From positions 1 to 31,722 of the IMG/VR virus record IMGVR_UViG_3300046007_005029: DNA of 31,722 nucleotides; one strand, given 5' to 3'. The notes beneath the pieces were generated by a model that worked only from the letters and a program-made list of their open reading frames with translations, was not told where the DNA came from and made no database searches. This document shows, one piece after another, positions 8,970-24,284 of this stretch (position 1 is the first letter of the stretch; the number at the start of each line of letters is the position of its first letter). The translations under genes were made by a program, and so were the position numbers. Source of the DNA: a virus (lineage: Duplodnaviria; Caudoviricetes).

Positions 8970-8997
8970 TTGATTTATATATTGTTTCGTCTAATAT
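8970..8997 (+). promoter_or_regulatory. Putative sigma70 promoter of the early gene cluster
   Basis: TTGATT-16 nt-TAATAT with A-tracts upstream (8930-8955), about 45 nt before the first plus-strand ORF. Confidence 0.55.
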
Positions 8998-9042
8998 CCC
9001 TTCCATGCGCTTCACTCCGGAGCGCTTCACTAAGGGGATGAA

Positions 9043-9228
9043 ATGAACAAGGCACAAGCGAAACAAGTAGCAATGATTGAAGTCTACCTATCCAACGATA
9101 TGCGCGATACAGCCGCTCGGAGCCTATCGGCGCTCATCCGCTCGGCGCTAGTAAATAAAACCGCCCAAGAGTTCCATGCAATAGCCGCCAAGCATGGATT
9201 GAACACTCATCCGGATTTCATCGTTTAA
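9043..9228 (+). CDS. Hypothetical early protein
   Basis: 61 aa, TAAGGGGA RBS, first gene after the promoter, followed by a terminator. Confidence 0.7.
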   Translation: MNKAQAKQVAMIEVYLSNDMRDTAARSLSALIRSALVNKTAQEFHAIAAKHGLNTHPDFIV

Positions 9229-9235
9229 CCCGACC

Positions 9236-9257
9236 GCCGGAGCGCTTCCGGCTTTTT
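9236..9257 (+). terminator. Rho-independent terminator/attenuator
   Basis: GCCGGA-gcgct-TCCGGC followed by TTTTT. Confidence 0.7.
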
Positions 9258-9274
9258 AATCATAAGGGGGAATT

Positions 9275-9448
9275 ATGACTATTACCGTCACCGTCCGCGA
9301 TATCTACGGCATTCAGACAATCTATCCGGCTTGCGATACCGCAAAGTTACTCGCACGGCTAGCCGGAACTAAGACACTCACTCGCCAAGCGCTCGAAACA
9401 ATTAAGAAGCTCGGCTATACCGTCACCGTCACCGCTCCGACAATCTAA
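9275..9448 (+). CDS. Small phage protein (57 aa), not in the ORF track
   Basis: Translated by hand: MTITVTVRDIYGIQTIYPACDTAKLLARLAGTKTLTRQALETIKKLGYTVTVTAPTI; TAAGGGGGAA RBS; YG..TIYP.C..AK..A..AGTKTLT is a recurrent phage early-protein pattern. Confidence 0.8.
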   Translation: MTITVTVRDIYGIQTIYPACDTAKLLARLAGTKTLTRQALETIKKLGYTVTVTAPTI

Positions 9449-9457
9449 GGGGAAACC

Positions 9458-10210
9458 GTGAAAAATCCATTTAAAGCACAATTGCAAGCCGAGGGATTGC
9501 CCTATCGTCCTATCCTCGGCGAATCGTCCGCTAAAACCGTCAAGGGTGAAAAAATCGGCTACTTGACGGCTATTTGCTACCTAGTACCGGATGAGAAGCT
9601 TTGCCCCTTTGCGAAGCTTGCCGGATGTTTCGACGGCTGTCTGAAATCCGCCGGACGCGGTGCTTTCAATTCCGTGCAAAAGGCGAGAGCCGCGAAAACC
9701 AAATTTTTTAACCAGCACATCCGCGCTTTTATGCTTTCCATGTGCGCTGATATCTGGACTCACAAGCGCCGCGCCGAAAAGCTTGGATTGATACCGCTTG
9801 TACGTCCCAATGGCACGTCCGATATCCCTTTCGAGAATATCAAAATCGACGGTCGGACAATTTTTCAGATATTCGCGGATGTTCAATTCTACGATTACAC
9901 AAAACACCCAAGCCGAAAGTTAGAAGGGAAAACAGCCGGTAATTACGATTTAACTTATTCATTCTCGGCGCTCACTCCGAGGACGGTTTCCGTCAAGGGT
10001 TTATCCAATGTCGCAAATCAGCGGACGGCTGTGGTGTTCTTGCACCGCTCAGAAATCCCCGAAACCTTCCGCGGCTGGAAAGTAGTTGACGGTGACGATA
10101 CGGACGTGCGGCATATTGAGCCGACCGGCGTAGTAGTGGCGCTTTATGCCAAGGGAAAAGCTAAAGCCGATACAAGCGGTTTTGTTCAAATCAAGGGGAG
10201 GGATTATTAA
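9458..10210 (+). CDS. GP88-like protein (radical-SAM-like Cys motif)
   Basis: LCPFA..AGC...CL..AGRG, VRPNGTSDI, VQFYDYTK, NYDLTYSFS, VVDGDDTDVR motifs characteristic of 'gene product 88'; GTG start with AAGGGG RBS. Confidence 0.7.
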   Translation: MKNPFKAQLQAEGLPYRPILGESSAKTVKGEKIGYLTAICYLVPDEKLCPFAKLAGCFDGCLKSAGRGAFNSVQKARAAKTKFFNQHIRAFMLSMCADIWTHKRRAEKLGLIPLVRPNGTSDIPFENIKIDGRTIFQIFADVQFYDYTKHPSRKLEGKTAGNYDLTYSFSALTPRTVSVKGLSNVANQRTAVVFLHRSEIPETFRGWKVVDGDDTDVRHIEPTGVVVALYAKGKAKADTSGFVQIKGRDY

Positions 10211-10407
10211 TGCTGAACACCGATCAAAAAGACATCACGTTTTATGTCACCGAAGAAACGGACGGCGAAGACATGGACGGCTTTGTGGTTCATTACGTCG
10301 ACTCGACAGGAAGCACGATTTGGAGCGAATTCTACGAAACAATGGACGATATAAGGGTTGCTTACAGGGAAGAAATCAAATCAGGACAATTTGAAGGGGA
10401 AATTTAA
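10210..10407 (+). CDS. Hypothetical acidic protein
   Basis: 65 aa, D/E-rich, TAATG coupling to the upstream gene. Confidence 0.65.
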   Translation: MLNTDQKDITFYVTEETDGEDMDGFVVHYVDSTGSTIWSEFYETMDDIRVAYREEIKSGQFEGEI

Positions 10408-10408
10408 C

Positions 10409-10600
10409 ATGGATAACATCAAAAAAATTGAAACCGAAAACACCGGCGGCGGCACTATGGTCGACATTCTTACGCTATGGAACGGCAGAGTTATTGTCGT
10501 TAGTGATGAGTATGTCGGCGTGTATACCAGCAAAGAGGATTTTTATAACTCGGTGGTCGATGACGATGAATCGAAAATGCTCGGCGGTTCTTGGTACTAA
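10409..10600 (+). CDS. Hypothetical protein
   Basis: Start moved to ATG 10409 (GAAGGGGA RBS); NTGGG.MVD motif. Confidence 0.7.
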   Translation: MDNIKKIETENTGGGTMVDILTLWNGRVIVVSDEYVGVYTSKEDFYNSVVDDDESKMLGGSWY

Positions 10601-10610
10601 GGGGGAAATT

Positions 10611-10838
10611 ATGCGAACAATCACAGCCAGATACGCCGGTTTTTGCGCGGCTACCGGCGCTCGAATCCTAGCCGGTGACGTTATCCAATGGCAAAAGGGG
10701 AAAGCCGTACTGTTAAAGCGGAAAGCCGTCCGCGTGGATACCGTCACGCTGTACGGTGACAAAGGTCCGACCGAGTTTTATAGAAACGCGCGGGGGCGCT
10801 GCGAGGACGCGCCCTGCTGCGGATGCTGCACTATTTAA
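10611..10838 (+). CDS. Small basic Cys-rich protein
   Basis: Start moved to ATG 10611 (TAAGGGGGAA RBS); ARYAGFC...G..I..GD.I N-terminus and RCEDAPCCGCC C-terminus. Confidence 0.75.
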   Translation: MRTITARYAGFCAATGARILAGDVIQWQKGKAVLLKRKAVRVDTVTLYGDKGPTEFYRNARGRCEDAPCCGCCTI

Positions 10839-10851
10839 AAGGGGATTAATC

Positions 10852-11067
10852 ATGCAAAAAAATCAAATGTACGGCCATGAGCAGTTTGTCTGCGTTTGGA
10901 ATGTTTCAACGGACAAATTTGTCACAGAAATTCATGACGGTAGTTTCTTTAACAAGGACAACGGCTATTCAGAGGATGACATAGAGTGTGTTACCGATTT
11001 GCTGATCGGCGAATCGACTGACATATCAGGTCCGACACAAGCGCATTATGTTATGCGCGTCTACTAA
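10852..11067 (+). CDS. Hypothetical protein
   Basis: Start moved to ATG 10852 (AAAGGGGA RBS). Confidence 0.65.
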   Translation: MQKNQMYGHEQFVCVWNVSTDKFVTEIHDGSFFNKDNGYSEDDIECVTDLLIGESTDISGPTQAHYVMRVY

Positions 11068-11098
11068 TACAGCACACAAATTCTAAAAGGGGATTGAC

Positions 11099-11278
11099 AT
11101 GGAAAAGCTACACGCACACGACAAGGAAACATGGTTAGACACAATCTGGTCGGCGCTCCACGCCTACAGAGGGGATTGCATTCCGGAGGGGAAACCGGCT
11201 TTCGACGATGAATGGTCCGACATATGCACGGCCATGGCATGGATTGAGGAAGAGCTAGATTTGCAGGACGAATTCTAA
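11099..11278 (+). CDS. Hypothetical protein (59 aa), not in the ORF track
   Basis: MEKLHAHDKETWLDTIWSALHAYRGDCIPEGKPAFDDEWSDICTAMAWIEEELDLQDEF; AAAGGGGA RBS; fills the gap exactly. Confidence 0.75.
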   Translation: MEKLHAHDKETWLDTIWSALHAYRGDCIPEGKPAFDDEWSDICTAMAWIEEELDLQDEF

Positions 11279-11290
11279 AAGGGGGTTGCC

Positions 11291-11473
11291 ATGCTTGAAG
11301 TGTATGAATTTTACTTTTTCGAGCCGTCCGTAAACCGGTTTGGGCGGCTATGCATTGCCGCCGATAGTGAATGGCAGGCGCTGATGCGGTTCAACGAAAT
11401 CGACGATTTAATATTCAAAGGGCAGAAGCTGATTAAATTTATTGAAGGGGGTTGCTATGATGAAAAAGGGTGA
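11291..11473 (+). CDS. Hypothetical protein
   Basis: 60 aa, AAAGGGGG RBS. Confidence 0.6.
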   Translation: MLEVYEFYFFEPSVNRFGRLCIAADSEWQALMRFNEIDDLIFKGQKLIKFIEGGCYDEKG

Positions 11474-11822
11474 GTACTACGTTGGGGACCTTTGCTATGT
11501 GCTTGACGATGCCACATGGGACAGGCTTTGTGATCTGCGGTGCGGTGGTTATCAGCCGCTTGACGGTGAATTCGAATTGCCGGACGGGCGGCGGGTTGCC
11601 ATGTTTCAGACAGCCTACGGGGACGGTGTTTACGAGGGGTCTTGCGGCGGCCAATATTTGGTTGACTCGGGATCGATTGGGTGTATCCGCGTGTCAGATT
11701 TACAGCCAGAACATCAGGACGATTCGTCATGGGGACACTTCGTGGAGTTCGACGAGGACTTCACCGTCGAATCAGATCACGGCGTGATCCGCATTGGTCA
11801 CGTTGAAATTGACACAAACTAA
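11457..11822 (+). CDS. Conserved phage protein (DUF4241-like)
   Basis: YYVGDLCYV, TAYGDGVY, VDSGSIGCI motifs; GAAGGGGG RBS. Confidence 0.65.
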   Translation: MMKKGEYYVGDLCYVLDDATWDRLCDLRCGGYQPLDGEFELPDGRRVAMFQTAYGDGVYEGSCGGQYLVDSGSIGCIRVSDLQPEHQDDSSWGHFVEFDEDFTVESDHGVIRIGHVEIDTN

Positions 11823-11838
11823 ATGAGGGGGGCAGATC

Positions 11839-12006
11839 ATGAACTTGTACAGATTCGAATGCGTCATATGGGTGAAAGGCGAAAGCCTTGAGGAAGCGCA
11901 AAGGGAATTGCACGATGAGGCGCTGTACCACTTTGCGGGGGACAACAACCTGGTTTCGCTCCAAAGTAACGATGGCGAGCTGGTCGAAGATGACACCGAT
12001 TTATAG
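11839..12006 (+). CDS. Hypothetical acidic protein (55 aa), not in the ORF track
   Basis: MNLYRFECVIWVKGESLEEAQRELHDEALYHFAGDNNLVSLQSNDGELVEDDTDL; GAGGGGGG RBS. Confidence 0.7.
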   Translation: MNLYRFECVIWVKGESLEEAQRELHDEALYHFAGDNNLVSLQSNDGELVEDDTDL

Positions 12007-12015
12007 GGGATTGCC

Positions 12016-12366
12016 ATGAAAACAAGTGAACTAAAAGGCGCAGCTCTTGATTGGGCGGTGGCTAAAGCTAAGGGCGTGACGCTGTACCCAAGCAAGCAAG
12101 GCAAGTGGATGCTCAAAAACTATGGTGAGTTTAATCATAGGCACGGAACACCGTGGTGGAATCCGTCAACCAACTGGGCGCAAGCCGGAACGATTATTGA
12201 CCGAGAGGGCATTTGCTTGGTGTTTTACCAGCACAAAATATGGGATGCTCACATGGATAACGTAAACTTTTATGAAACCGGCACGACCCCACTCATTGCA
12301 GCCATGCGCTGCTACGTTGCTAGCAAACTAGGTGACGAGGTGGAATTGCCGGAAGAACTGCACTAA
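12016..12366 (+). CDS. ninX: NinX/DUF2591 family protein
   Basis: L.GAALDWAVAKA...PSTNWAQAG.IIDREGI...G.TPLIAAMRCYVASKLG. Confidence 0.8.
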   Translation: MKTSELKGAALDWAVAKAKGVTLYPSKQGKWMLKNYGEFNHRHGTPWWNPSTNWAQAGTIIDREGICLVFYQHKIWDAHMDNVNFYETGTTPLIAAMRCYVASKLGDEVELPEELH

Positions 12367-13376: not shown

Positions 13377-13549
13377 GGCTCCCCCTCTTTCACCTTGTAG
13401 TGCTGAGAAAATGTGTACACATTCTGCCATGTAGCCTTGCAATCGCAGCACTCCATGTCATCTTTGACTTTGTTCTTCTCGTGATAGCTTCGGACCTGCA
13501 AGATGTTGCGCTGCTTGCAGATTGGGCATCGGTCTACTCTCTCCATCAT
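13364..13549 (-). CDS. Small zinc-ribbon protein
   Basis: CPIC...CCDC..TW; overlaps both helicase stop and primase start. Confidence 0.6.
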   Translation of the reverse strand: MMERVDRCPICKQRNILQVRSYHEKNKVKDDMECCDCKATWQNVYTFSQHYKVKEGEPWTS

Positions 13550-15036
13550 CTCCGTCCTATTGATTTTAGAAACTTCTTAAGTTGTTTTTCCACTAGCCTC
13601 ATCGTCTCGACTGTCGGCATCTGCGGCATATCATTACTCAACCCCCGCGGCCACACTCCGAACTGCTCTCTGTAAGTGTGAGCCGCTCGTCCGCTGGACC
13701 ATCCTTTGTATCGCTGATACCAGACCATCTGATTCCAGAACTTCTGTTTGGACTCTCGACTGGCTCCAGCGTTAGCAACAAGCTCCTCCATTCTTCCATC
13801 AACTCTGATAATTGCATTTTGTTTTTCCCTCACAAATCCACAATGATGGCACGCATCATTACCTTCAATCCACAACGCCCCACACCGCTGACACTTGCTC
13901 TCTTTCTTTTCCCTCTCTGATGGTTCGCTCTTGCTTTTCTCGCGGCCATCGTCCAGGCGGTTTACCCCATCTTGAAATACGTCATCCCAATCGTCTTGGA
14001 ATCTAAGATAGTTACCGCTGTGATCTAGCCAGACAGCAAACGGTTTATCCGTCGGATTATTTAGGTTCGCCCGCATCACCCTGCCCATCTGCTGGATGTG
14101 TGATGACAGACTCTTCGAGAATGGCCGCGCCGAGATACCGATCATCACGTCCGGAACGTCGAAGCCTTTGGTCAGTATGTCGGTGGCAATCAAGCCATGA
14201 ATCTTGGTGTCCGGCCTGCTGAAGTCCTCGATAGTCTGGCGCTTCCACTCGTCATCATCCTTGTAGCTGACGCACACAAAGTTATACCCGCGGTTTGCAA
14301 ACTCCCGCGAGAGATGAACGCCGTGATCAACACCCGCGCAGAAGACAATCGTCTTCCGTGGCCGACCAAATATCTCGTGCGTCTTCTTAATCCACTCGGC
14401 CACCACGTCACCGGTAATCTTGATGCCGCGCCGCGTGGCTTCTAATTGTGACCACTCGCCGGCCACCTTCTTCGCGCCGCTCATGTCAATTTCTTTGGCA
14501 ATGAACACGCGCAGCGGGACTAGTAGCTTCTCATCTACTAGCTGCTTGGTAGTCACCGGACTAACCACGTTGTCATAAACTTTGCCAAGACCTCTGGTAA
14601 ACGGCGTGGCTGTTAAACCAATCACGCGGATGTTCGGATTGGCTTTAATGAAATCAATCGTGGCCTTGCGAGTTTGATGCGCTTCATCAATGATGAGCAG
14701 GTCAAGCCCTGGGAACTCGCCGCGTTTCTCTAGCGTCTGTGCTGAACACACTTGGATAGGTTCGTACGGACGGTAACGCCAGTGGCCTGACTGTAGAACA
14801 CCGTGGTCAATGCCATATTTTTCTAAGCGTCCGCTTGTTTGATTGCAGAGAACGATCCGATCAAGCAGCATGGCTGCGCGATTGCCCTTCTCTTTGACAG
14901 CCTTCATCAAAGCGATGGCCATCTCAGTTTTGCCTGCACCCGTAGGCGCTACTAATATCTGCGCCTTCGCACCATTTGCGAAACCCTTTCGCAATAGTGA
15001 GAGCGCCTCCTCTTGATACGACCGGAGTTCTAACAT
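13546..15036 (-). CDS. Superfamily 2 DNA helicase (SSL2/YejH-like) with C-terminal Zn ribbon
   Basis: APTGAGKT, IIDEAH, GLTATP, LTKGFDVP, QQMGRVMR, CQRC..CHHC. Confidence 0.92.
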   Translation of the reverse strand: MLELRSYQEEALSLLRKGFANGAKAQILVAPTGAGKTEMAIALMKAVKEKGNRAAMLLDRIVLCNQTSGRLEKYGIDHGVLQSGHWRYRPYEPIQVCSAQTLEKRGEFPGLDLLIIDEAHQTRKATIDFIKANPNIRVIGLTATPFTRGLGKVYDNVVSPVTTKQLVDEKLLVPLRVFIAKEIDMSGAKKVAGEWSQLEATRRGIKITGDVVAEWIKKTHEIFGRPRKTIVFCAGVDHGVHLSREFANRGYNFVCVSYKDDDEWKRQTIEDFSRPDTKIHGLIATDILTKGFDVPDVMIGISARPFSKSLSSHIQQMGRVMRANLNNPTDKPFAVWLDHSGNYLRFQDDWDDVFQDGVNRLDDGREKSKSEPSEREKKESKCQRCGALWIEGNDACHHCGFVREKQNAIIRVDGRMEELVANAGASRESKQKFWNQMVWYQRYKGWSSGRAAHTYREQFGVWPRGLSNDMPQMPTVETMRLVEKQLKKFLKSIGRR

Positions 15037-15057
15037 TGATTCCTCTCTCTGCCAGCA

Positions 15058-16209
15058 CTAGCCCGCTGGCTTGGGCATCTGTAATTTTATTCGCTTTCCT
15101 ATCCAATTCATCACAGGTACGGCCATTGAATTTCCCAATGCCTTGTAGCGTGGTCCATCGGGAGAATCTATCGCCTTGCGCCACGGGATATTGGTGTACC
15201 CATCTGGGAATCCCTGCAATCGTTCGCACTCGACTGGCGTAAGACGGCGCACCGCCATTGATTGAATCAATACGTTTTCACCACCGGAGTTGCGTCCTTG
15301 CGCGAAGGCAACGTCACTAACACAGGGGTCTTGAGTACCATGAATAACTGTTGGCTGCGCTACACCTTGCAAACCAGTGGTGTCCAACGTGTACATCGTG
15401 CCGTCAGCTTTCCAACCTGCGCCGTTCTGATTTTTATCGCGGCTGCTTGTGTCGGCTAACGCTATCGGCGCAAGGATCGGTGTCTGCCCTTCATCAAGGG
15501 TGGTGTTGATACCCTTGTGCATCCGTTGCGTCAGACAGTTGGCGACACGGTAGGGTTGGAAGTGTCCAACTGCTGCTCCTTCTGGTCGCCCTCCTGCGCC
15601 ACCACTGAAAGAGCTGCTTGCAATTGCTCCGGCAATTTCTTTCCGCGCTTCTCTGCTCGGCGGAGAATCCCCGCGCACGCTTTCGCGCTCAAAAAGAACC
15701 TCGGCGGCAGGTCGCCAGTCTCCAAGGTATCCGACAACGAACACACGACGGCGTCGCTGGGCCACTCCGAAGTACTGAGCGTCAAGCGTTCTGTAGGCGA
15801 ACCCATACCCGAGTTCTGCCAACGCCCCGAGGAAGGAACCAAAGTCCCGTCCTCCGCTACTACTGAGGACACCCGGCACGTTTTCCCATACGCACCACTG
15901 GGGTCTAAACCTGTCAAGAATTCCGACATAAGTGAGGGCGAGGTTGCCTCGAGGGTCTTCGAGTCCACGCCTGAGTCCGGCGACGGAAAAAGATTGGCAA
16001 GGTGTTCCACCGACCAGAAGGTCAATTGGCTCAAGGTTCCACTCCTTGTACTTGGTCATGTCCCCTAGGTTGGGAACGTTGGGGTAATGGTGCGCTAGCA
16101 CCGCAGATGGGAAGGCTTCGATCTCAGAGAACCCCACTGGCTGCCAACCCAGTGGGTGCCATGCTACCGTCGCTGCCTCTATGCCCGAGCAGACAGACAG
16201 GTATCTCAT
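15058..16209 (-). CDS. DNA (cytosine-5) methyltransferase, alpha polypeptide
   Basis: Motif I SVCSGIEA, IV GGTPCQSFS, VI WENVPG, VIII QRRRRVF, RRLTPVECERLQGFP, X YKALGNSMAVP. Confidence 0.95.
   Translation of the reverse strand: MRYLSVCSGIEAATVAWHPLGWQPVGFSEIEAFPSAVLAHHYPNVPNLGDMTKYKEWNLEPIDLLVGGTPCQSFSVAGLRRGLEDPRGNLALTYVGILDRFRPQWCVWENVPGVLSSSGGRDFGSFLGALAELGYGFAYRTLDAQYFGVAQRRRRVFVVGYLGDWRPAAEVLFERESVRGDSPPSREARKEIAGAIASSSFSGGAGGRPEGAAVGHFQPYRVANCLTQRMHKGINTTLDEGQTPILAPIALADTSSRDKNQNGAGWKADGTMYTLDTTGLQGVAQPTVIHGTQDPCVSDVAFAQGRNSGGENVLIQSMAVRRLTPVECERLQGFPDGYTNIPWRKAIDSPDGPRYKALGNSMAVPVMNWIGKRIKLQMPKPAG
15531..16034 (-). CDS. Nested alternative-frame gene, M.EcoHK31I beta-like methyltransferase subunit
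   Basis: 167 aa entirely inside the MTase gene on the same strand; AAGGAG 7 nt before the TTG start; S.RW.NSGM...E.PS....CSLSD.LET.....FFLS..AC.GILRRA..RG..LP resembles the EcoHK31I beta polypeptide. Confidence 0.75.
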   Translation of the reverse strand: MSQLTFWSVEHLANLFPSPDSGVDSKTLEATSPSLMSEFLTGLDPSGAYGKTCRVSSVVAEDGTLVPSSGRWQNSGMGSPTERLTLSTSEWPSDAVVCSLSDTLETGDLPPRFFLSAKACAGILRRAEKRGKKLPEQLQAALSVVAQEGDQKEQQLDTSNPTVSPTV

Positions 16210-17006
16210 CCCTGAAGTTTCTTAAGCTTGTTGGTGAGGCTGTTAACCTGCCGCATCAGCTGCGCGTTCTCTCTCATCAAAGAATCTCGAGAATCGGTGA
16301 CCGCCTTGACTTCAATCTCCAGCAATCGGATCTGAGCGCGTAAGTCTTTGATGGTGGACTCGGCCATGGCCTTGTCCAGTTCATCCGCATCCATGCTTGC
16401 GATGGCCAGCTGGTCAGACAACGCTTCGTTCTCCGCTTTCAACAGCTCAATCGTGGCCTGCATTTCCTCCTGAAAAATATCATCCTCGTTTGGAGTTTCT
16501 TCCAAGGTTGGAGTTTCTTCCAGCTTTGGATTTTCTTCCAAGGTTGGAGCTGCTTGCGCCTTGTTGCTCTGTTTCTTTTCTTCTAACTCTTGTTTTACTT
16601 TTAATACCAGTGAGTGGCTGCAATCACACAGGACAGCGATCTCGCGGCTGGGTTTGCTCTTAGTTCTTGGATGTGACAGCGCATTCAATACAGACTTGCG
16701 GCGATCTTTGACGGTTGGACGTAGGCCATGCTTGCTGTTGACGCTCCAGCTTTTGATGATGGCGTCATCAAGGGTGCCTTCCTGCACGTCACACTCAATG
16801 CCTGGCGCTCCGATCTTCCGAGCGGCGAAGTAACGGTGAAATCCATCCACCAGATAGTGCTTTGTGCCATCTGATATCACTAGACAGGGAGTAAATTTCG
16901 CCCCGTCTTTCATCGCCTCCGCATACTCAGCAATCGTATGCTTGTCTAATGACACGCGAGACTGTGTGCCGGCGTCAATTGTTATTTTGTCAAGACTCAG
17001 GTGCAT
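16206..17006 (-). CDS. ParB/Srx-like N-terminal domain protein with HTH and coiled coil
   Basis: TQSR, LVDGFHRYFAA, N.KHGL, SREIAVLCDCSHSLV (HTH); start moved to ATG 17006 (GGGAG RBS). Confidence 0.8.
   Translation of the reverse strand: MHLSLDKITIDAGTQSRVSLDKHTIAEYAEAMKDGAKFTPCLVISDGTKHYLVDGFHRYFAARKIGAPGIECDVQEGTLDDAIIKSWSVNSKHGLRPTVKDRRKSVLNALSHPRTKSKPSREIAVLCDCSHSLVLKVKQELEEKKQSNKAQAAPTLEENPKLEETPTLEETPNEDDIFQEEMQATIELLKAENEALSDQLAIASMDADELDKAMAESTIKDLRAQIRLLEIEVKAVTDSRDSLMRENAQLMRQVNSLTNKLKKLQG
16490..16549. repeat. 3.3 tandem copies of an 18 bp quasi-palindromic unit inside the ParB-like gene
   Basis: TTGGAGTTTCTTCCAAGG / TTGGAGTTTCTTCCAGCT / TTGGATTTTCTTCCAAGG / TTGGAG; encodes PTLEENPKLEETPTLEETPN. 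Confidence 0.9.
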
Positions 17007-17008
17007 AA

Positions 17009-17113
17009 TTACTCCCATGTAAACGCAATAAATGCAGCAACTGCTAGGCCAAGGATAGATCCCGCGCCAATCAATATGCCGCTAACTAAAATGATGGCAG
17101 TGAATGTATCCAC
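17009..17113 (-). CDS. Small single-pass membrane peptide (34 aa), not in the ORF track
   Basis: MDTFTAIILVSGILIGAGSILGLAVAAFIAFTWE; TAGTG coupling to the upstream ORF; fills the gap exactly. Confidence 0.6.
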   Translation of the reverse strand: MDTFTAIILVSGILIGAGSILGLAVAAFIAFTWE

Positions 17114-17319
17114 TAGTCCCCCATTCTTCCTTTGATCAGGTCAATCATTTCGCTGTACGCCGCCTTGCTTTGCTCATGCGTACGCGCCCAGACCATCTCG
17201 TGGGCTGCTTGGTAAACACGATCAAGGCGACGCAGTAACGCTGCTGCCTCGTTGTCACGCTGCTCCCGAGCGCGGTCTTCCAAGTAGTCGGCTAACTCCT
17301 CTGCTGTACTTTTAATCAC
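17113..17319 (-). CDS. Hypothetical protein
   Basis: 68 aa helical; GAGGAG RBS; GTGA overlap. Confidence 0.65.
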   Translation of the reverse strand: MIKSTAEELADYLEDRAREQRDNEAAALLRRLDRVYQAAHEMVWARTHEQSKAAYSEMIDLIKGRMGD

Positions 17320-17513
17320 AGTGTGGACTCCTCTCGTGTGTTGATAGACAACCTCGCCACGTCAAACAGGAAGCCATTATCAGCAGCCACCTGCTCTAAC
17401 GTCCTCTCCAGCGCCCTAGAAACATTCAACGCAGTTTCACCAGAAAGCGGCTCAGAAGCGCGGAACGCTAGTCTAGCGGTAAACAATAGGTCTGCCTCGT
17501 AAAAACTCTCCAT
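17316..17513 (-). CDS. Hypothetical protein
   Basis: 65 aa; AGGAGG RBS. Confidence 0.6.
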   Translation of the reverse strand: MESFYEADLLFTARLAFRASEPLSGETALNVSRALERTLEQVAADNGFLFDVARLSINTREESTL

Positions 17514-17524
17514 ACGCCCTCCTG

Positions 17525-17773
17525 TTAGGTCTTAGCCATGATTCGTGTTGCTATGTCATCCGCGGGATACTCCACGTCCCGCAGCTGGTGGCAGATCATT
17601 GCCGCCCGCTCCCGCTCCTGCTCCTTCACCAGGGTGGCGAACTGCCACAGGCTAGCCAGATCACCCTCCATCCCCTCATCGGTATGCACGAACTCTTTGC
17701 CCGTCCACTCATGCCTAACCCACGGCAAGATGCCCGCACGCTCGGCCAATCTCAAAAGCTCTTCTCGTTCCAT
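17525..17773 (-). CDS. Hypothetical phage protein
   Basis: 82 aa; GGAGGAG RBS; M.REE..RLA..AG...L..FA.LV...ERE..A.IC pattern common in small phage proteins. Confidence 0.7.
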   Translation of the reverse strand: MEREELLRLAERAGILPWVRHEWTGKEFVHTDEGMEGDLASLWQFATLVKEQERERAAMICHQLRDVEYPADDIATRIMAKT

Positions 17774-17860
17774 TTACTCCTCCCTGTGTGTACAACACTT
17801 GCAATGCTAGCGGAACAGAGTGTTGCGTCTAATTGTAAATTTTTATCAGGAAAAAAAAGT

Positions 17861-18170
17861 TGATAGCCCACAAAGTAAATAGGCATAGGGTCCCCATGGG
17901 TGATAGCCCGAGCCAAATGCGAAGCACACTTGATGGGGTATCACTCCTGCCCAGAGTAGCTTGTGATGCTAGCTACTCCTAGCTGCTGGAACTTGTCTGT
18001 TGTCAGACTTGCTACAGCTCCCAGAAGGCAGCGATTATCTCGATGGGGAAGATGTCTATCACCACTGGCTTCCCCCTCTTGTGCAGTCCCTCACTGACAG
18101 GCTGCGTGGCTAGTAGGCGGGTGAGACCTCTGCCAGTGTTTCTCGGGTTCAGCCCATGCAGGCCATTAGC
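17861..18170 (-). ncRNA. Candidate ~300 nt structured non-coding element (RNA, or ssDNA origin)
   Basis: No ORF in the track; stems at 17954-61/17971-78, 17982-86/18028-32, 17995-99/18004-08, 18045-51/18069-75, 17898-905/17939-46. Strand inferred from flanking transcription and the A8 tract at 17851-17858. Confidence 0.5.
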
Positions 18171-18422
18171 TTACGCGCCCTGACGCTCAGTAGCATTACT
18201 GCTTTCAAAGTGGGCGGTGATGATTTGTTTGGTCTTGTTCGCCGTTTTTTGTGGAAGCACTATTCCCGCATCCATCAAATTTTTAAGACGGCCTAATTCA
18301 GAACAGACTTGATCAACCGACAGCCCAAATTTACGAGCCAGATCTTGCTGTTCTTTAAGCGTCACGGCGTATGTCTTCCGAGTATCGTTGGACATTGGCA
18401 GGAAAAGCTTTTGAGACAACAT
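18171..18422 (-). CDS. Hypothetical protein downstream of the C4-like RNA
   Basis: ATG 18422 has an AGGGG RBS 7 nt upstream; earlier starts run into the terminator. Confidence 0.5.
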   Translation of the reverse strand: MLSQKLFLPMSNDTRKTYAVTLKEQQDLARKFGLSVDQVCSELGRLKNLMDAGIVLPQKTANKTKQIITAHFESSNATERQGA

Positions 18423-18454
18423 GACCTGGCCCCTGAGGAGTGTCATCGGAAAAC

Positions 18455-18568
18455 CAAAAGAAAAAACCCTCAAGGCTTGGCTCTCCGTGTGTCAGGCACG
18501 TCCCCACTGAAGGGGTGAGAACCAAAGCTTGAGGGCTTCGGTGTTTGTCGCCGCCTGACACAGTGACG
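18455..18568 (-). ncRNA. C4/CI-like antisense (immunity-type) RNA with leader target and terminator
   Basis: Outer stem CCCTCAAG 18467-74/CTTGAGGG 18528-35, inner stem, two hairpins (CGTG-tgtcagg-CACG; CCCC-actgaa-GGGG); 18488-97 is complementary to leader 18553-62; U-tract follows. Confidence 0.7.
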
Positions 18569-18573
18569 AGCGC

Positions 18574-18602
18574 AGTGTAGGTCAGGATGAGATGGATTGC
18601 AA
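18574..18602 (-). promoter_or_regulatory. Sigma70 promoter for the C4-like RNA
   Basis: TTGCAA (18602-18597)-17 nt-TACACT (18579-18574). Confidence 0.7.
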
Positions 18603-18649
18603 GTGGCAGCTTAATTACTTTTTTGAAAAGCCGCACTATATATATGTGA

Positions 18650-18733
18650 AACAATAAACCCCGTCTTTCCGGGGTGTCACTACTCGCTACGTCTGACAGG
18701 AAGGGGGAACCTGCCAGCATCCGCTTTCGATAG
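18650..18733 (-). ncRNA. Candidate ~80 nt small RNA with a UUCCCCCUU apical loop
   Basis: Own promoter; CUG-GCAGG/CCUGU-CAG stem closing loop 18701-18709; terminator ACCCCG 18658-63/CGGGGT 18670-75 followed by UUAUUGUUU. Confidence 0.65.
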
Positions 18734-18737
18734 TGAG

Positions 18738-18766
18738 AGTATACAGGAACGGTATATTGCAATCAA
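18738..18766 (-). promoter_or_regulatory. Sigma70 promoter for the ~80 nt sRNA
   Basis: TTGATT (18766-18761)-17 nt-TATACT (18743-18738). Confidence 0.7.
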
Positions 18767-18770
18767 TGGC

Positions 18771-18875
18771 AAAAAAGAGGGCGCCGGATACCGTTACGCC
18801 CTCAAACTCCCACACGGGAGCTGTCGCCGCTGCGAAGAAGCCTAGTCGAGAGAGAGATCGACCAGGCAGCCTCAA
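18771..18875 (-). ncRNA. Candidate ~100 nt small RNA with three hairpins
   Basis: Hairpin 18840-18867 with UCUCUCUC loop, CTCCC/GGGAG hairpin 18807-18820, terminator GAGGGCG 18777-83/CGCCCTC 18797-803 plus U6. Confidence 0.55.
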
Positions 18876-18879
18876 CGCC

Positions 18880-18907
18880 ACAATAGCACACGCATAAAAG
18901 TTGTCCA
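18880..18907 (-). promoter_or_regulatory. Putative promoter for the ~100 nt sRNA
   Basis: TGGACA-16 nt-TATTGT with a TGn extended -10. Confidence 0.45.
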
Positions 18908-18990
18908 CAGCCTAGTATCCATGCGGGTTTTCAGACTGTTCCAGACTATCTTGCACTTTGTAATACATTGTTCCTGTTACAAATTAACTG

Positions 18991-19019
18991 TTGACACGCA
19001 CTAAATACGCCGCTACATT
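18991..19019 (+). promoter_or_regulatory. Sigma70 promoter of the rightward operon
   Basis: TTGACA-17 nt-TACATT, 30 nt before ATG 19050. Confidence 0.8.
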
Positions 19020-19049
19020 TAGGTTGTGGGACATTTATTGGAGATAAAA

Positions 19050-19277
19050 ATGCTGAGTCCAGAACACCAGAAAGTATTGATGACTGCATATGATCGTTAC
19101 AAAGTTTCCAGAGATCCGGACGAACTTAACAAAGCGATTGAGCTGGTTCGGATATTGGCATCAGAGAAGTTCTTTCATGGCGACGATGACCCGCGGCTGA
19201 AAGACCGTGTGTTTTTCAACGAGCCTTACAGCGCACATTGGTCTGGCTCTTACGTCAAAAGATATGGTGCTAAATGA
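19050..19277 (+). CDS. Hypothetical protein
   Basis: Start moved to ATG 19050 (GGAG RBS); first gene of the operon. Confidence 0.65.
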   Translation: MLSPEHQKVLMTAYDRYKVSRDPDELNKAIELVRILASEKFFHGDDDPRLKDRVFFNEPYSAHWSGSYVKRYGAK

Positions 19278-19477
19278 TCGTCGATACCATTAACTACAAA
19301 GCAATATGGGCATGGATCAATGCTGTCTGGGCCAAGTCATTTATCGCTGTCGTTCTCTTCATGCTTGGGCTGTGGATTGGCACCGTGCAAACAGAAAGCC
19401 GGCTTGCTTCTGACTGCAAGTTCGCTGGCGCTTTTCGCGTGGACATTCAGGCCTTCACTTGTCAGAGGAAGCTATGA
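19274..19477 (+). CDS. Small membrane protein
   Basis: One hydrophobic segment, then DCK..G.FR.....F.C; ATGA overlap. Confidence 0.65.
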   Translation: MIVDTINYKAIWAWINAVWAKSFIAVVLFMLGLWIGTVQTESRLASDCKFAGAFRVDIQAFTCQRKL

Positions 19478-19665
19478 CCAAGGATGACATTGCCCGTATT
19501 GCGGAGCAAACCAAAAAATATGCGAAGGTTGATCAGATGGGGATAGTGGCCGTCTTGTCAGAAGACGTAGGCGGCATGACTTACGTGGCGCGGTGGGTGA
19601 GAACAGATTTGATTCAAGACTTTCCTGAAGGCGCGACGTGGGCTGAGATGACGGGGGTGCCATGA
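19474..19665 (+). CDS. Hypothetical protein
   Basis: ATGA overlap at 19474, GAGGA RBS. Confidence 0.6.
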   Translation: MTKDDIARIAEQTKKYAKVDQMGIVAVLSEDVGGMTYVARWVRTDLIQDFPEGATWAEMTGVP

Positions 19666-19859
19666 CTGACAAAGATTGGCACGACATTTGGGAGCAATTC
19701 GATTGGCATTCTTTTGACATAGAAGAAGCGTTCCAAAAAGAAATGGTTGCGAAGCATGGCGATGGACACTATTACATGGATAGTGATGAAGACTGGAAAA
19801 GACAAAAAGCCCTGATACAAAAACTTGTAGAAGCCAAGCTGAGGGAGAAGAACACATGA
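19662..19859 (+). CDS. Hypothetical protein ending EAKLREKNT
   Basis: 65 aa, ATGA overlaps at both ends. Confidence 0.65.
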   Translation: MTDKDWHDIWEQFDWHSFDIEEAFQKEMVAKHGDGHYYMDSDEDWKRQKALIQKLVEAKLREKNT

Positions 19860-20218
19860 TCACACTAACCCGCGAGGAAGCGCAGCAGGTGCTGGATGCG
19901 TTGCAATGCGCTACCCCGCCGACGTTCAGCACAAAGATGGTAGAGGATTGGCAAAGCGCAGTCGAATTTCTCCGCGCCCGACTCGCGCAGCCTGAACCGG
20001 AGCCGGTGGCAGACAAGTACCTGATGGAAATCGAATGCACAAAGTGCGGAGCAAAGCAGGATGGCATCTTGACCGTCAACGCCCCTCCACAGCGCAAATG
20101 GCAGGGGCTGACGGATGAGGAGATTATGTCGCTGTTGCCCGGTGCAGTCAGGCTGCCGCCGGGATGGTCTGAAACTGTTCGCGCCATCGAAGCCAAGCTG
20201 AAGGAGAAGAACACATGA
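19830..20218 (+). repeat. 30 bp direct repeat (19830-19859 and 20189-20218)
   Basis: GAAGCCAAGCTGAGGGAGAAGAACACATGA versus GAAGCCAAGCTGAAGGAGAAGAACACATGA, one mismatch. Confidence 0.9.
19856..20218 (+). CDS. Mosaic phage protein (QPEPEPVA...WQGLTDEEI...AIEAKLKEKNT type)
   Basis: 120 aa, built of short recurrent phage modules around a CxxC insert. Confidence 0.7.
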   Translation: MITLTREEAQQVLDALQCATPPTFSTKMVEDWQSAVEFLRARLAQPEPEPVADKYLMEIECTKCGAKQDGILTVNAPPQRKWQGLTDEEIMSLLPGAVRLPPGWSETVRAIEAKLKEKNT

Positions 20219-20427
20219 AAGCATTTCCAAACATGACCGGAGAGAAGGGCATGGACTTGCGGGATTACTTTGCGGCAAAGGCAGTTCAGAGTCTGTGGGC
20301 GCTGGGTCCTATGGCTTTTGAAAAACGAGCAAAGAAAGAAAAGAAAACAGAAGAAGAATTGGTTGCAGAGTTAGCGTACTCATTAGCAGACAAGATGATG
20401 AAAGCGAGAGAGCATGAGAGCGCTTAG
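20215..20427 (+). CDS. Conserved phage protein (GMDLRDYFAAKA family)
   Basis: AFP...GM.LRDYFAAKA...AY..AD.MMKAR motif. Confidence 0.75.
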   Translation: MKAFPNMTGEKGMDLRDYFAAKAVQSLWALGPMAFEKRAKKEKKTEEELVAELAYSLADKMMKAREHESA

Positions 20428-20599
20428 CGTTATGTACAACTTCCGAACTGATGAGACCAAGATCACACTCTCCCAAGAGTTCAAAGAGTCTGATTGGATT
20501 TTGAAGTTGGACATTCTGCGAGACGCTATCTACGACTTGGAAGAAATCTACAACGAAACTTACGCGAAAGAAATCGCCAAAGACAAGGGGGAAAAATGA
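20414..20599 (+). CDS. Hypothetical protein
   Basis: 61 aa, overlaps both neighbours. Confidence 0.6.
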   Translation: MRALSVMYNFRTDETKITLSQEFKESDWILKLDILRDAIYDLEEIYNETYAKEIAKDKGEK

Positions 20600-21489
20600 T
20601 ACTGACAAATAAACACGGGCTGCCAGACACTATCGTCAACGTACTGAAGCGCCCACAGTACAGCAAGGGAGACAGCCATGTCTCTGTTACTGAGCTGCTG
20701 TCGCCGCCGCAGATCGTCCAGCTTCGCGCCAAGCATGACGCAGAGATCGAGCAAGACGCTAGCGAGATGGTCTGGTCACTGTTTGGCACCGCTGTCCACA
20801 ACGTCCTCGAGCGTGGCAAGGATGACCACCATATCGTAGAGGAGCGCATCTTTACCGACATGGACGGCTGGCGGATCAGCGGACAGATCGACCTGCAAGA
20901 AATCTACGAAGACGGTATCGCTATCAAAGACTACAAAGTCACATCAGCCTGGGCAGTCCAAGCAGAGAAGGCAGAGTGGCACAACCAGCTGAACATCTAC
21001 GCTTGGTTAGTAGAGAAGGCCAAAGGCGTGGAAGTAAAGAGCCTACAGATCGTGGCCATCATCCGTGACTGGAGCCGGCGCGATGCAGTAACCAAAGATG
21101 GTTACCCGCAGGCCCCTATCGTCACCATCGACATTCCGCTGTGGGAGCCAGAACAACAAGAAGCATTCGTTAAAGAGCGACTCAACAAACACAGCGAGGC
21201 TAGCCTGTCTGTACAAATCGGGCATGAGCTGCCGGAATGTACAGCAGAGGATATGTGGGAGAAGCCCACAACCTACGCCGTCAAGAAGGTTGGCGGTGTA
21301 CGGGCGAAGCGGGTATTCGATTCCCACGAGGAAGCAAAAGTGTTTTTGAAAACTGTAAAGGATCATCAGATTGAGATCAGACATGGTGGCAGAACCAGAT
21401 GCCAAAGCTTCTGCAATGTCAGCCAGTTCTGTTCTCAGCACCAGCAGTACATAGAGCAGTATCAATCAACCTTTGAATCAGGAGAATGA
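20596..21489 (+). CDS. PD-(D/E)XK exonuclease (Cas4/AddB-like) of the recombination module
   Basis: SVTELL, GTAVHNVLE, SGQIDL, IKDYKVT, QLNIYAWL, C-terminal RC..FC....FC; start moved to ATG 20596 (AAGGGGGAA RBS); next to erf. Confidence 0.8.
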   Translation: MILTNKHGLPDTIVNVLKRPQYSKGDSHVSVTELLSPPQIVQLRAKHDAEIEQDASEMVWSLFGTAVHNVLERGKDDHHIVEERIFTDMDGWRISGQIDLQEIYEDGIAIKDYKVTSAWAVQAEKAEWHNQLNIYAWLVEKAKGVEVKSLQIVAIIRDWSRRDAVTKDGYPQAPIVTIDIPLWEPEQQEAFVKERLNKHSEASLSVQIGHELPECTAEDMWEKPTTYAVKKVGGVRAKRVFDSHEEAKVFLKTVKDHQIEIRHGGRTRCQSFCNVSQFCSQHQQYIEQYQSTFESGE

Positions 21490-21490
21490 C

Positions 21491-21640
21491 ATGAAATACC
21501 TAATCGCTGTTTGGGCATTGGCCGCCGCAGGCATGGCATACGCAGGTTGCACCTATAACAACTTCTGTGACAACCGTGGCAACTGCACCTTCTGCACGAC
21601 CTGCTGCTACGGTGGCGTGTGCAATACCACTTGCAACTAA
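21491..21640 (+). CDS. Secreted Cys-rich micro-protein (49 aa), not in the ORF track
   Basis: MKYLIAVWALAAAGMAYA-GCTYNNFCDNRGNCTFCTTCCYGGVCNTTCN; AGGAG RBS; fills the gap between nuclease and erf. Confidence 0.8.
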   Translation: MKYLIAVWALAAAGMAYAGCTYNNFCDNRGNCTFCTTCCYGGVCNTTCN

Positions 21641-21649
21641 GGAGAACGA

Positions 21650-22357
21650 ATGAAAGCAATCGCCGCCGCATTGGTCAAGGCGCAGAGAGAGTTTGGACCA
21701 GCGCTGAAGACCAGCACTAACCCGCACTTCCGTAGCAAGTACGCGTCCTTGGATGCCTGTATTGAGGCAGTCATCGACGCGCTGAACAACAACGGCATCT
21801 ACCTGATGCAGCTGACAGACGAGCATGAAAACGGGGTGAAGGTAGCCACCACCTTTATCCACGAGTCTGGCGAGCAACTATCAGGTGGCACGCTGTTCAT
21901 GCCGGCTACCAAACACGACGCCCAGGGATTTGGTTCGGCTTTGTCTTATGCCCGCAGATACAGCCTGATGGCTGCGTGCGGTATCGCCCCGGAGGATGAC
22001 GATGGCAACCAAGCATCAAAGACAGCGCCAGTTCAAGCGGCTCCTAAAGCAGTACCGAAAGCTCCGCCGGTTGTTCCGAAGCAGATCGCCGGGAAGGACT
22101 CCCCTTGGCAGCTTAAGGCATCCACTGAAGATGAGACGAACCCTGAGGATTGGGTAGTTGCTGTTACTGAAGCCACATCATTTGCGCTTGAGATGGCGCA
22201 GTCAGTCAGTGATGTGAACAACATCTACAAGGTGAACAAGGTGGTCTACGACAAATTGAAGAACGTCGATGGGGTGACATACTCCATGTTGTTGGACCGA
22301 TTCAAAACCATGAAAGAAAAATTTGAGGAGAAAGCAGATGAGTACGTTCCCGAATAG
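21650..22357 (+). CDS. erf: ERF family ssDNA-annealing protein
   Basis: NPHFRSKYASL, HESGE, QGFGSALSYARRYSL.AACGIAPEDDDGN. Confidence 0.9.
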   Translation: MKAIAAALVKAQREFGPALKTSTNPHFRSKYASLDACIEAVIDALNNNGIYLMQLTDEHENGVKVATTFIHESGEQLSGGTLFMPATKHDAQGFGSALSYARRYSLMAACGIAPEDDDGNQASKTAPVQAAPKAVPKAPPVVPKQIAGKDSPWQLKASTEDETNPEDWVVAVTEATSFALEMAQSVSDVNNIYKVNKVVYDKLKNVDGVTYSMLLDRFKTMKEKFEEKADEYVPE

Positions 22358-22628
22358 TGGGCGCCTGAACTACAGCAAGCAGAAGATCAACCAGTCCAGC
22401 CCTGATCTGTACGGGGAGATTGCGATTGATCGCACCCTGCTGCGGCAGATGCTGTCGGAAACAGACGAGGACAACATCGTCATCCGCCTATCTGGCTGGG
22501 AAAAGAACGGCAACTACGGTCCTTGGTTCTCTATCAAGGTAAACACTTGGAAGAAGACCGAAACCATGGAAGCGCCCAAACCAGCAGCGCCACCGCCAGT
22601 AGTAGATGACAGCGACATTCCTTTCTGA
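22338..22628 (+). CDS. Putative single-stranded DNA-binding protein
   Basis: NSG.L....K.....PD..G.I...LSGW pattern and acidic C-terminal DDSDIPF tail; follows erf. Confidence 0.7.
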   Translation: MSTFPNSGRLNYSKQKINQSSPDLYGEIAIDRTLLRQMLSETDEDNIVIRLSGWEKNGNYGPWFSIKVNTWKKTETMEAPKPAAPPPVVDDSDIPF

Positions 22629-22635
22629 GGGTGCC

Positions 22636-22839
22636 ATGAACCACCTGATAGATTACTTAGTGCGGGAATACGATCTCCGTAATGATGCAGCGTTGGCCAA
22701 GACGATAGGCGTTCACCCGCCTACCATCTCAAAGCTGCGTCATGGTGGGATGTCCCTGACGCCGACCGTCATCCTGAAGATTCATGAAGCCTTTGATATG
22801 CCGGTGAAAGAGATCAAGCGGATTGCATATGGCAAATAA
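22636..22839 (+). CDS. XRE-family HTH protein
   Basis: LRNDAALAKTIGVHPPTISKLRHG. Confidence 0.8.
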   Translation: MNHLIDYLVREYDLRNDAALAKTIGVHPPTISKLRHGGMSLTPTVILKIHEAFDMPVKEIKRIAYGK

Positions 22840-23146
22840 ATCCCCGACGCAGCGCAGCCTCGAGTACCTACGGGAGCAGGGCTATCACTGTGAAGTGGTA
22901 GAAAAGTGGAATCCGTGGAGGCGTGTGCGTCAGGATCTCTGGGGATGGTGTGACATCTTGGCCATCCGTAGGGATGAGGTGTTAGCGGTGCAGGTCACGG
23001 CAGCCGGCGTGGCAGCAAGGATCAAGAAGATTCAGGAATCAGACACCATCGCCCGTGTCAGGGAAGCAGGCATCAGAGTGGAAGTCCACGGCTGGACCAA
23101 GCGGGCTAACGGCAAGTATGCATTGAGAGTGGAGGATATATCGTGA
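22829..23146 (+). CDS. Putative Holliday junction resolvase-like PD-(D/E)XK nuclease
   Basis: YLREQGY...DLWGWCDILAI....VLAVQVT...EVHGW. Confidence 0.6.
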   Translation: MANKSPTQRSLEYLREQGYHCEVVEKWNPWRRVRQDLWGWCDILAIRRDEVLAVQVTAAGVAARIKKIQESDTIARVREAGIRVEVHGWTKRANGKYALRVEDIS

Positions 23147-23436
23147 AGGAATTAAGCAGATGCGATAAAAGGTTTTGGGATTGGTTTTCTAGTGCGTACG
23201 CCAAACTTCCAAAGGGTCAAGAGCTTCCCTTAAGCGATGAAGACTTATATGAGTTATGGGTGTCTATGTGGCCGGTGATTTACCACTGCGGCATGACTTA
23301 CGGCCAATCGCTGGCTGATAAAAAAAATAGGCGTTCGATGGGTATTTATGAAATGAAAAGATTGTACGACTTATGTCCAAACAAAACCGGTTATGAGCTT
23401 GGCGTGATGATAGAAAAGTGGCACGGGATAGGATAA
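23143..23436 (+). CDS. Hypothetical protein
   Basis: 97 aa, GGAGG RBS, GTGA overlap, visibly lower GC than its neighbours. Confidence 0.6.
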   Translation: MKELSRCDKRFWDWFSSAYAKLPKGQELPLSDEDLYELWVSMWPVIYHCGMTYGQSLADKKNRRSMGIYEMKRLYDLCPNKTGYELGVMIEKWHGIG

Positions 23437-23465
23437 ATAATGGAAACAATTCAAGAGGATATAAG

Positions 23466-24284
23466 TTGAGAGACCCATTCATTATTGACGAGCCAATCTG
23501 TATCTCCTTCAGCGGAGGTCGGACATCTGCTTACCTGCTGTGGCGTGTCCTGCAATCCAACGGCGGCTTACCCGAACAGGCAATCGTCTGCTTCGCCAAC
23601 ACCGGCAAGGAGGAAGAGGCAACGCTGGAGTTTGTCAGAAACTGCGAGACAAACTGGAACGTGAAGATTCATTGGCTGGAGTATCAAAATGAAAAGCCTA
23701 ACTTCCGTGTGGTGGACTTTGCCACAGCCAGCAGGAATGGGGAACCGTTCGAGCAGCTGATTCTGAAGCGCAAGTATCTGCCCAATCCGGTGACTAGATT
23801 TTGCACAGCCATCTTGAAGATACGCACCATCCATCGGTATCTGAAACATCTTGGTTGGAAGCACAACGAGAACATGGATTGGCTGGGCATCCGAGCGGAC
23901 GAGCAGCGCAGAGCCGCCAAGGTAGATCGTAGTCGAGCGCCGTTAGTTGCCGCGGGCATTACTGCCAAGGATGTAGGCGAGTTCTGGAAGTCACAGCCTT
24001 TTGACTTAGGCTTGCCCAACATCAATGGCAAAACCATGCACGGGAACTGTGACTTATGTTTCTTGAAAGGTGCCAAACAAATCCTAAGTCTGGTGGCAGA
24101 GAAGCCGGAGCGGGCGGTCTGGTGGGCAAAGATGGAGACGCTAGTCCAGACGAGCAACCAAACGTTTGGCAATGGCGCTAGGTTCCGTAAGGACAGACCG
24201 TCTTATGCAGAGATGCAGAAGTACGTGGACAAACAGGTGGACATGTTTGATGACGAATCCATAGATTGTTATTGCGGAGAGTAA
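23466..24284 (+). CDS. PAPS-reductase-family (PP-loop) protein
   Basis: ISFSGGRTSAYL, FANTGKE, RFCT..LK, GIRADE.RR, GNCDLCFLK, terminal CYCGE; likely TTG start 23466 (AGAGGA RBS). Confidence 0.8.
   Translation: MRDPFIIDEPICISFSGGRTSAYLLWRVLQSNGGLPEQAIVCFANTGKEEEATLEFVRNCETNWNVKIHWLEYQNEKPNFRVVDFATASRNGEPFEQLILKRKYLPNPVTRFCTAILKIRTIHRYLKHLGWKHNENMDWLGIRADEQRRAAKVDRSRAPLVAAGITAKDVGEFWKSQPFDLGLPNINGKTMHGNCDLCFLKGAKQILSLVAEKPERAVWWAKMETLVQTSNQTFGNGARFRKDRPSYAEMQKYVDKQVDMFDDESIDCYCGE

Follow-up and report, generated by a model that had tools for sequence, protein, structure and literature searches.

In cluster K mycobacteriophages a conserved private sequence, the start-associated sequence (SAS), occurs at the ribosome-binding site (RBS) of non-structural genes (PMC3203893). 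The authors left open whether its binding partner is RNA or protein, and mentioned that it also occurs singly, in reverse orientation, at sites remote from gene starts (PMC3203893). The present analysis concerns a 31.7-kb stretch of DNA from an uncultured phage, hereafter called the window and representing about half a genome, in which an initial annotation had drawn attention to a small RNA (the flagged RNA). As in cluster K, a conserved repeat in one orientation is found at the starts of non-structural genes (GGGG in the window, AGGAGAT in the relative L045), but the sequence and the hosts are different, and the early RBS show different motifs. Unlike the SAS, the tag found here exists in two states, AGGAGAUCA and AAGGGG, and its reverse copy forms the loop of a predicted RNA that has a separate promoter.

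The T4 endoribonuclease RegB inactivates early mRNAs class-wide through their Shine-Dalgarno (SD) motif (PMC1702504). RegB is a protein nuclease cutting GGAG, whereas the effector in the present locus would be a base-pairing RNA. The toxic or double-hairpin sRNAs of Betaproteobacteria (RF02278) are described as having unpaired, CU-rich stretches complementary to the RBS (PMC5688073, PMC4603805). An unpaired pyrimidine-rich, RBS-complementary stretch is found here too, but RF02278 RNAs are host-encoded with broad targets, and the flagged RNA is built on a different scaffold. The RF02278 covariance model gave no match at E≤10 for the flagged RNA or for a neighbouring RNA of the window, sRNA-A; among relatives, the short sRNA-A form of L487 (31.4 bits, E 5e-5) and L016 (17.2 bits) scored below the gathering threshold of 50.

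The c4 RNA of P1/P7 and the CI RNA of P4 silence the phage's own genes by means of loops with complementary sequence, and c4 acts around an RBS (PMC12197685, PMC4825925). These RNAs confer immunity by acting on a single neighbouring operon, whereas a dozen or more distant targets are predicted here: the three other AAGGGGGAA sites do not flank the RNA but belong to different operons at distances of 1.9-9.4 kb. The RF01695 (C4) model matched neither the window nor the cassettes of relatives. Judged by the Rfam models, the flagged RNA belongs to neither C4/CI nor RF02278. Among the papers listed in literature searches, which covered subscription journals only in small part, none described a phage RNA silencing an early gene class through a private SD.

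The flagged RNA and its predicted promoter

Complete relatives of the window phage have genomes of 58-67 kb. In the window, head genes (126-8814) and replication genes (12537-17773) are encoded on the minus strand, and a cluster of small genes (9043-12566), labelled early from its position and content, is encoded on the plus strand. A 1.2-kb intergenic region lies between the replication genes and a plus-strand recombination arm to its right. No tRNA or tmRNA genes were found.

The flagged RNA is a predicted transcript of about 82 nt from the minus strand of this intergenic region (18648..18731), with an identical copy in the contig L003. The hairpin described in the initial annotation, with a loop complementary to AAGGGGGAA, is present: an 8-bp stem (18717-18710 with 18700-18693, including one G-U pair) closes a 9-nt loop, UUCCCCCUU (18709-18701), which is private to the lineage. 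Folding is better than that of shuffled sequences on the minus strand (z -2.63) and not on the plus strand (z -0.55). A search of IMG/VR for the exact hairpin had two hits, a near-identical contig and an unrelated stretch that matches by chance; in cultured or GenBank phages, the hit lay elsewhere in the intergenic region. Rfam searches yielded no matches at E≤5 for the whole window and only sub-threshold matches for 17780-19060. A 135-aa open reading frame crossing the element on the minus strand (18762-18355) was rejected as a gene, as its start falls within the promoter and no corresponding frame exists at orthologous loci.

A predicted sigma-70 promoter, TTGATT-17-TATACT, precedes the RNA (18738..18766, minus strand; 9 of 12 consensus matches), with the -35 box at 18766, a 17-nt spacer and the -10 box ending at 18738, giving a predicted start at 18731. 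Since promoter-like matches in the region 8000-24000 are not above shuffled sequences (10 versus 13.3), the promoter assignment rests on conservation in relatives. The -10 region is kept in L007, L009, L011, L026 and L027, and an operator-like box overlapping the promoter is conserved as well, making the promoter credible at the sequence level. The box is a 17-mer overlapping the spacer (18743..18759, plus strand), with a second copy beside the right-arm promoter (18961-18977). Two copies in the window compare with 0.03 expected, a count that is not independent because the pattern was drawn from these two copies; copies were present in all ten relatives checked. In relatives the 17-mer was also seen in the replication arm, where it accompanies another promoter-like site.

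While the promoter described in the initial annotation thus has conserved elements, its terminator fared worse. The candidate is a hairpin, GGAAAGAC, followed by an imperfect U tract (18648..18675, minus strand), and it is doubtful because this conserved hairpin has a U-rich tail in just 3 of 18 distinct copies. Terminator-like matches in 8000-24000 are likewise not above shuffles (18 versus 17.2).

A private ribosome-binding site of the early genes

The early module (9032..12366, plus strand) carries a private AAGGGG(G/A) RBS and contains predicted targets. Of the 13 early genes, 12 have GGGG in the RBS, compared with 4 of the 45 remaining genes (Fisher p 2e-8). The window has four copies of AAGGGGGAA against 0.22 expected, at 9264, 10599 and 20585 and in the hairpin itself. 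It had been claimed that this sequence, as the exact complement of the flagged loop, forms the RBS of the genes starting at 9275, 10611 and 20596, and that the MCP, scaffold and 63-aa protein genes use AAGGAG instead; both statements hold.

In silico, the loop is also selective for the early class, as had been proposed. Using an approximate accessibility model and manually chosen starts, some of them uncertain, pairing at or below -8 kcal/mol is predicted for 12 of 13 early and none of 11 late starts; among replication starts the count is 4 of 9, and in the right arm it is 4 of 25. At or below -9 kcal/mol, the flagged RNA reaches all 13 automatically called early starts and 4 of 72 SD-bearing starts of a Limnohabitans contig, a stand-in for the host in which 72 of 204 open reading frames have a detectable SD. 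The best predicted targets include the primase, at its start region (13377..13396, minus strand; -15.4 kcal/mol), and the exonuclease, through its AAGGGGGAA RBS (20585..20593, plus strand). The AAGGGG class addressed by the flagged RNA would comprise the early module, the primase and the exonuclease. The pairing between loop and RBS extends over only 7-9 nt. On the whole there are about even odds that the flagged RNA represses translation of the AAGGGG class, that is, of early and some replication genes, by loop-RBS pairing.

The RNA scaffold family

The flagged RNA is a member of a widespread phage RNA scaffold, GAAAGCGGAUG...GCAGCGAGUA. In the window the core (18681..18728, minus strand) consists of GAAAGCGGAUG (18728-18718) and GUAGCGAGUA (18690-18681), and its GAAA/GAGUA elements are presumably loop-E-like. 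The number of IMG/VR stretches matching the pattern of two core strands is estimated at 480 to 1,700, depending on the strictness of the pattern; the members include L085-L204, L228-L347 and 23 GTDB stretches. Because betaproteobacterial names occur on 12 of 23 cellular matches of the scaffold, the host may belong to Burkholderiales.

Among 224 distinct members, basal pairs 1-4 form in 219, 210, 207 and 199, respectively. A 38-row alignment has 92.4% paired cells and 31 compensatory cells, a level reached by none of 500 shuffles; its core columns are uninformative, having been imposed by the pattern used in the search. The window copy has the closed variable hairpin between the conserved core strands. 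The covarying basal clamp of 4-5 bp, 87.9% paired across the family, is degenerate there, and the window, L007, L009 and L011 keep just its first pair in register. Rfam gave no relevant match for 20 scaffold loci, and no matches at gathering thresholds for two sets of relatives' loci (8 and 7). On the evidence of the alignment, the scaffold is real and has no Rfam entry. In literature text, the matches listed for the core motifs were unrelated. The core motif was absent from the six supplementary files of PMC10690425 that were searched (files 1, 2 and 4 were outside the search), and the scaffold may be among the candidates of that study.

Most members sit within operons, usually about 10 nt past a stop codon. 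In 133 rows examined, 19 had no detectable upstream open reading frame, and 70 of the remaining 114 members lie at most 30 nt past its stop codon. The window copy belongs to the minority placed directly behind a promoter. The genes preceding scaffold members often encode proteins with an acidic-PF tail, which we take to be typical of SSBs.

These properties bear on a different reading, in which the function resides in the conserved core, through protein binding or processing, while the tip is free-running and its match to the RBS coincidental. The core is nearly invariant and the tips, 20 to 68 nt long, are unrelated between members; the prevalent location within operons fits this reading as well. 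The family has no guide-like complementarity: 58 tips tested had no excess of exact complementarity to their own contig (p 0.066), and the concept of a scaffold with a variable guide was rejected for the family as a whole. The matching loop is confined to one lineage, as UUCCCCCUU is known from the window and its near-identical contig only, and among the 224 members it occurs in one and a CCCC loop in two, so the scaffold by itself is no anti-RBS device. Against a coincidental match, the flagged tip ranks second of 215 distinct scaffold tips when paired with the early starts of the window, the first-ranking tip, of L226, having the appearance of a chance pattern match. About 1 in 200 tips thus match so well, although the presence of several loops in the locus raises the chance to a few percent. 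In addition, the gain of the loop coincides with a switch of the early RBS and with the loss of AGGAG-directed motifs in the RNA next door. A function of the core alone is on balance rather unlikely.

The neighbouring sRNA-A

Next to the flagged RNA, upstream of its promoter, lies the gene of sRNA-A, a conserved anti-SD RNA of this phage family (18770..18907, minus strand; fold z -4.43). It has a promoter at 18907-18880, a predicted transcript at about 18873-18770 and a loop, UCUCUCUC, at 18857-18850. The promoter is conserved, the stems covary, the loops are CU-rich and the terminator is strong. sRNA-A was delimited in the window and 31 relatives, among which are 19 long and 12 short forms, and the carriers include L007, L011, L016, L019, L043, L045 and L047. 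This set was hand-picked: 27 of 46 further loci showed no terminator, many being too short upstream, and five other loci, incomplete or of another type, were excluded.

The long sRNA-A of L019, L043, L045 and L047 contains an exact 9-11 nt complement of the phage's own early tag, and that of L029, a short form, has a 14-nt match spanning a start codon. Across the 31 relatives, leaving the window aside, predicted pairing of sRNA-A is stronger at the early starts of the phage's own genome than at those of other genomes (permutation within type p 0.0007; short forms p 0.03, long forms p 0.007). The preference persists after thinning to 18 genomes (p 0.0001-0.0012; the sets include L633 and either L468 or L490) and when the AAGGGG relatives L468 and L633 are left out (p 0.0009), and it has no correlation with GC content. 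The helicase start of the same genome is likewise favoured (p 0.011; 32 genomes, the window among them). In the window, the helicase RBS contains AGAGAGAG (15043..15050, minus strand), which is complementary to the sRNA-A loop over 8 nt. Because related genomes share states, these p values look stronger than they are; as far as the sequences tell, sRNA-A loops in relatives tend to follow the early and helicase RBS.

The short forms (L029, L031, L032, L051, L066, L067, L075, L487, L495, L564, L569 and L570) are 60-75 nt long, have their own promoter and lie 2.4-7.8 kb upstream of the helicase. Their 5' part is the reverse of a whole translation start, combining anti-AUG and anti-SD segments, and by inspection CAU occurs at start-codon spacing in 10 of 12. 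The idea that they are merely gene starts on the reverse strand was rejected, as 2 of 12 have no AUG and the frames differ, also by inspection.

Loop type and early RBS type across relatives

Helicase relatives have the same element as the flagged RNA at the same position, with other tips. The early modules of most close relatives use AGGAGAUCAGACG, directly before the AUG in most early genes. This start-associated, SAS-like repeat was observed in L007, L011, L016, L019, L027, L045, L047 and others. AAGGGG is used by the early modules of L006, L033, L046, L468, L469 and L633 and by that of the window, there at all 13 automatically called starts. In a 45-row helicase tree these genomes fall in two separate, well-supported clades, and this distant distribution suggests exchange of the module. 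Of the helicase clade to which the window belongs, L005, L006 and L635 are devoid of the small-RNA locus. A 250-aa protein of the AAGGGG module (window 9458-10210 and neighbours; L468, L633, L046, L469) is 91-96% identical between genomes.

In the 20 long-form genomes, a CCCCUU loop is present in the locus of all three AAGGGG genomes versus 3 of 17 others, and UCUCCU in none of the three versus 16 of 17; the genomes are not independent, the other cassettes of relatives were uncounted, and CCCCUU comes from the flagged RNA in the window while in the three genomes with other early modules it lies in sRNA-A. The nearest relatives of the window, L007, L009 and L011, have AGGAGAUCA-type early sites. 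Three concordant differences set the window apart from them: the loss of UCUCCU and the loss of GAUCUCC in sRNA-A, and the gain of UUCCCCCUU in the flagged RNA. Few changes would have been needed for this gain, because the sister tip of the flagged RNA already contains GUUCCC.

Several genomes deviate from this pattern. L490 contains an RNA nearly identical to the CCCCUU RNA of L468, yet its early sites are of AGGAG type (GGGG in 0 of 13). L011 has the same AAGGGGGAA RBS at its exonuclease gene and no C-rich loop. L026 and L027 carry both CCCCUU and UCUCCU motifs, so that in L468 and L633 the CCCCUU loop may be older than the early module. The covariation of loop and early RBS anticipated in the initial annotation is seen across the small-RNA locus as a whole, with L490 as a contradiction. 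It is not seen in the orthologues of the flagged RNA, where the loop is not conserved and does not follow RBS usage; in relatives the matching loop sits in the neighbouring RNA. The interpretation should be widened from the flagged RNA alone to the whole small-RNA locus, and sRNA-A is the better candidate at the family level.

Discrimination between early and late starts was likewise not a general property of the design. Of ten complete or near-complete relatives, four (L045, L468, L032 and L051) have an sRNA-A that favours early starts over late ones at p<0.05, one is borderline and five show no preference; in L045, AGGAGAT occurs at 14 of 17 early and none of 22 late starts. The sRNA-A of seven relatives bind 19-57 of the 72 stand-in Limnohabitans starts, and for this reason behave as generic anti-SD RNAs. 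This raises the reading that the locus encodes RNAs damping translation of the host or of competing phages, the match to the phage's own early genes being secondary. The RF02278 score of the L487 short form and the anti-AUG segments of most short forms agree with it, as do the RBS-covering CU-rich stretches and the growth attenuation reported for toxic sRNAs (PMC5688073). However, the flagged loop, which binds all 13 early starts of its own phage, binds merely 4 of the 72 stand-in starts, and the loops match the phage's own early sites instead of avoiding them, so that this reading appears quite improbable.

A proposed RNA-programmed early off-switch

The hairpin and its selective complementarity to the private early RBS, the scaffold family and the neighbouring anti-SD RNA are all evident at the sequence level. 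The best explanation, at about even odds, is that the flagged RNA is a stand-alone small RNA whose C-rich loop pairs with the AAGGGG-type RBS and blocks translation of the early genes. A wider reading, to which we assign a somewhat lower probability of roughly 40%, is that this phage family runs an RNA-programmed early off-switch, in which the RBS tag of a swappable module is read by anti-RBS loops in a cluster of small RNAs and the lineage of the window has reprogrammed an unrelated scaffold tip to match a newly acquired tag. Such a switch would be an RNA counterpart of T4 RegB and would explain start-associated sequences.

In the proposed mechanism, the flagged RNA is transcribed from its own promoter, and a phage protein binding the operator-like box, common to this and the right-arm promoter, would control it, resulting in middle timing. 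The C-rich loop would pair first with AAGGGG RBS in competition with 16S rRNA, leading to exclusion of the 30S subunit and a block of early-gene translation. Labour would be divided between the two RNAs, sRNA-A keeping the helicase site and the flagged RNA taking over the AAGGGG class. This takeover would have followed the acquisition of the AAGGGG-type early module by the lineage.

It is highly improbable that the pairing serves immunity, which the initial annotation had also suggested, or superinfection exclusion in place of a timed switch, either by silencing the early module when a related phage enters the cell or by maintaining a carrier state. In favour of such a role, the predicted targets are genes that an incoming genome presumably expresses first, plus the primase and exonuclease, operator-like boxes are present on several promoters, and precedents exist in the c4 RNA of P1 and the CI RNA of P4 (PMC12197685, PMC4825925). 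Against it, all five complete relatives are devoid of a tyrosine integrase or resolvase, the relatives' cassettes have no Rfam C4 match, and the MCP shares 63% identity with its counterpart in the lytic pelagiphage HTVC023P.

If the early off-switch operates as proposed, one short RNA loop together with a private SD variant would shut down a whole temporal gene class at translation, and phages could re-tune this class-wide shut-off by a few base changes. The role of start-associated sequences, left open in PMC3203893, would become directly approachable with simple reporters in a laboratory strain, and the locus would provide a natural orthogonal RBS/anti-RBS pair. Regardless of function, it exposes two RNA families with no Rfam entry: the loop-E-like scaffold, found in some 1,700 viral stretches, and an anti-SD RNA carried by phages and conserved in no fewer than 31 relatives.

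Other non-coding elements

Downstream of the flagged RNA, and not part of it, are a conserved promoter and an attenuator-like leader of the replication operon (18456..18602, minus strand; fold z -4.14), which ends in a strong terminator; its conservation was assessed over 23 loci, duplicates included. In relatives, arrays of repeated structured cassettes, ACGCATGAGGATTG...CAGTCCTCAGCCGTGTTG and others, are inserted between the small-RNA promoters and this leader (L007 7790-7880, L016 2500-3150, L019, L039 and L043); they have no Rfam match, and their designation as C4-like was accordingly dropped. Two conserved non-coding blocks on the minus strand (17886-18163) are common to more than ten relatives.
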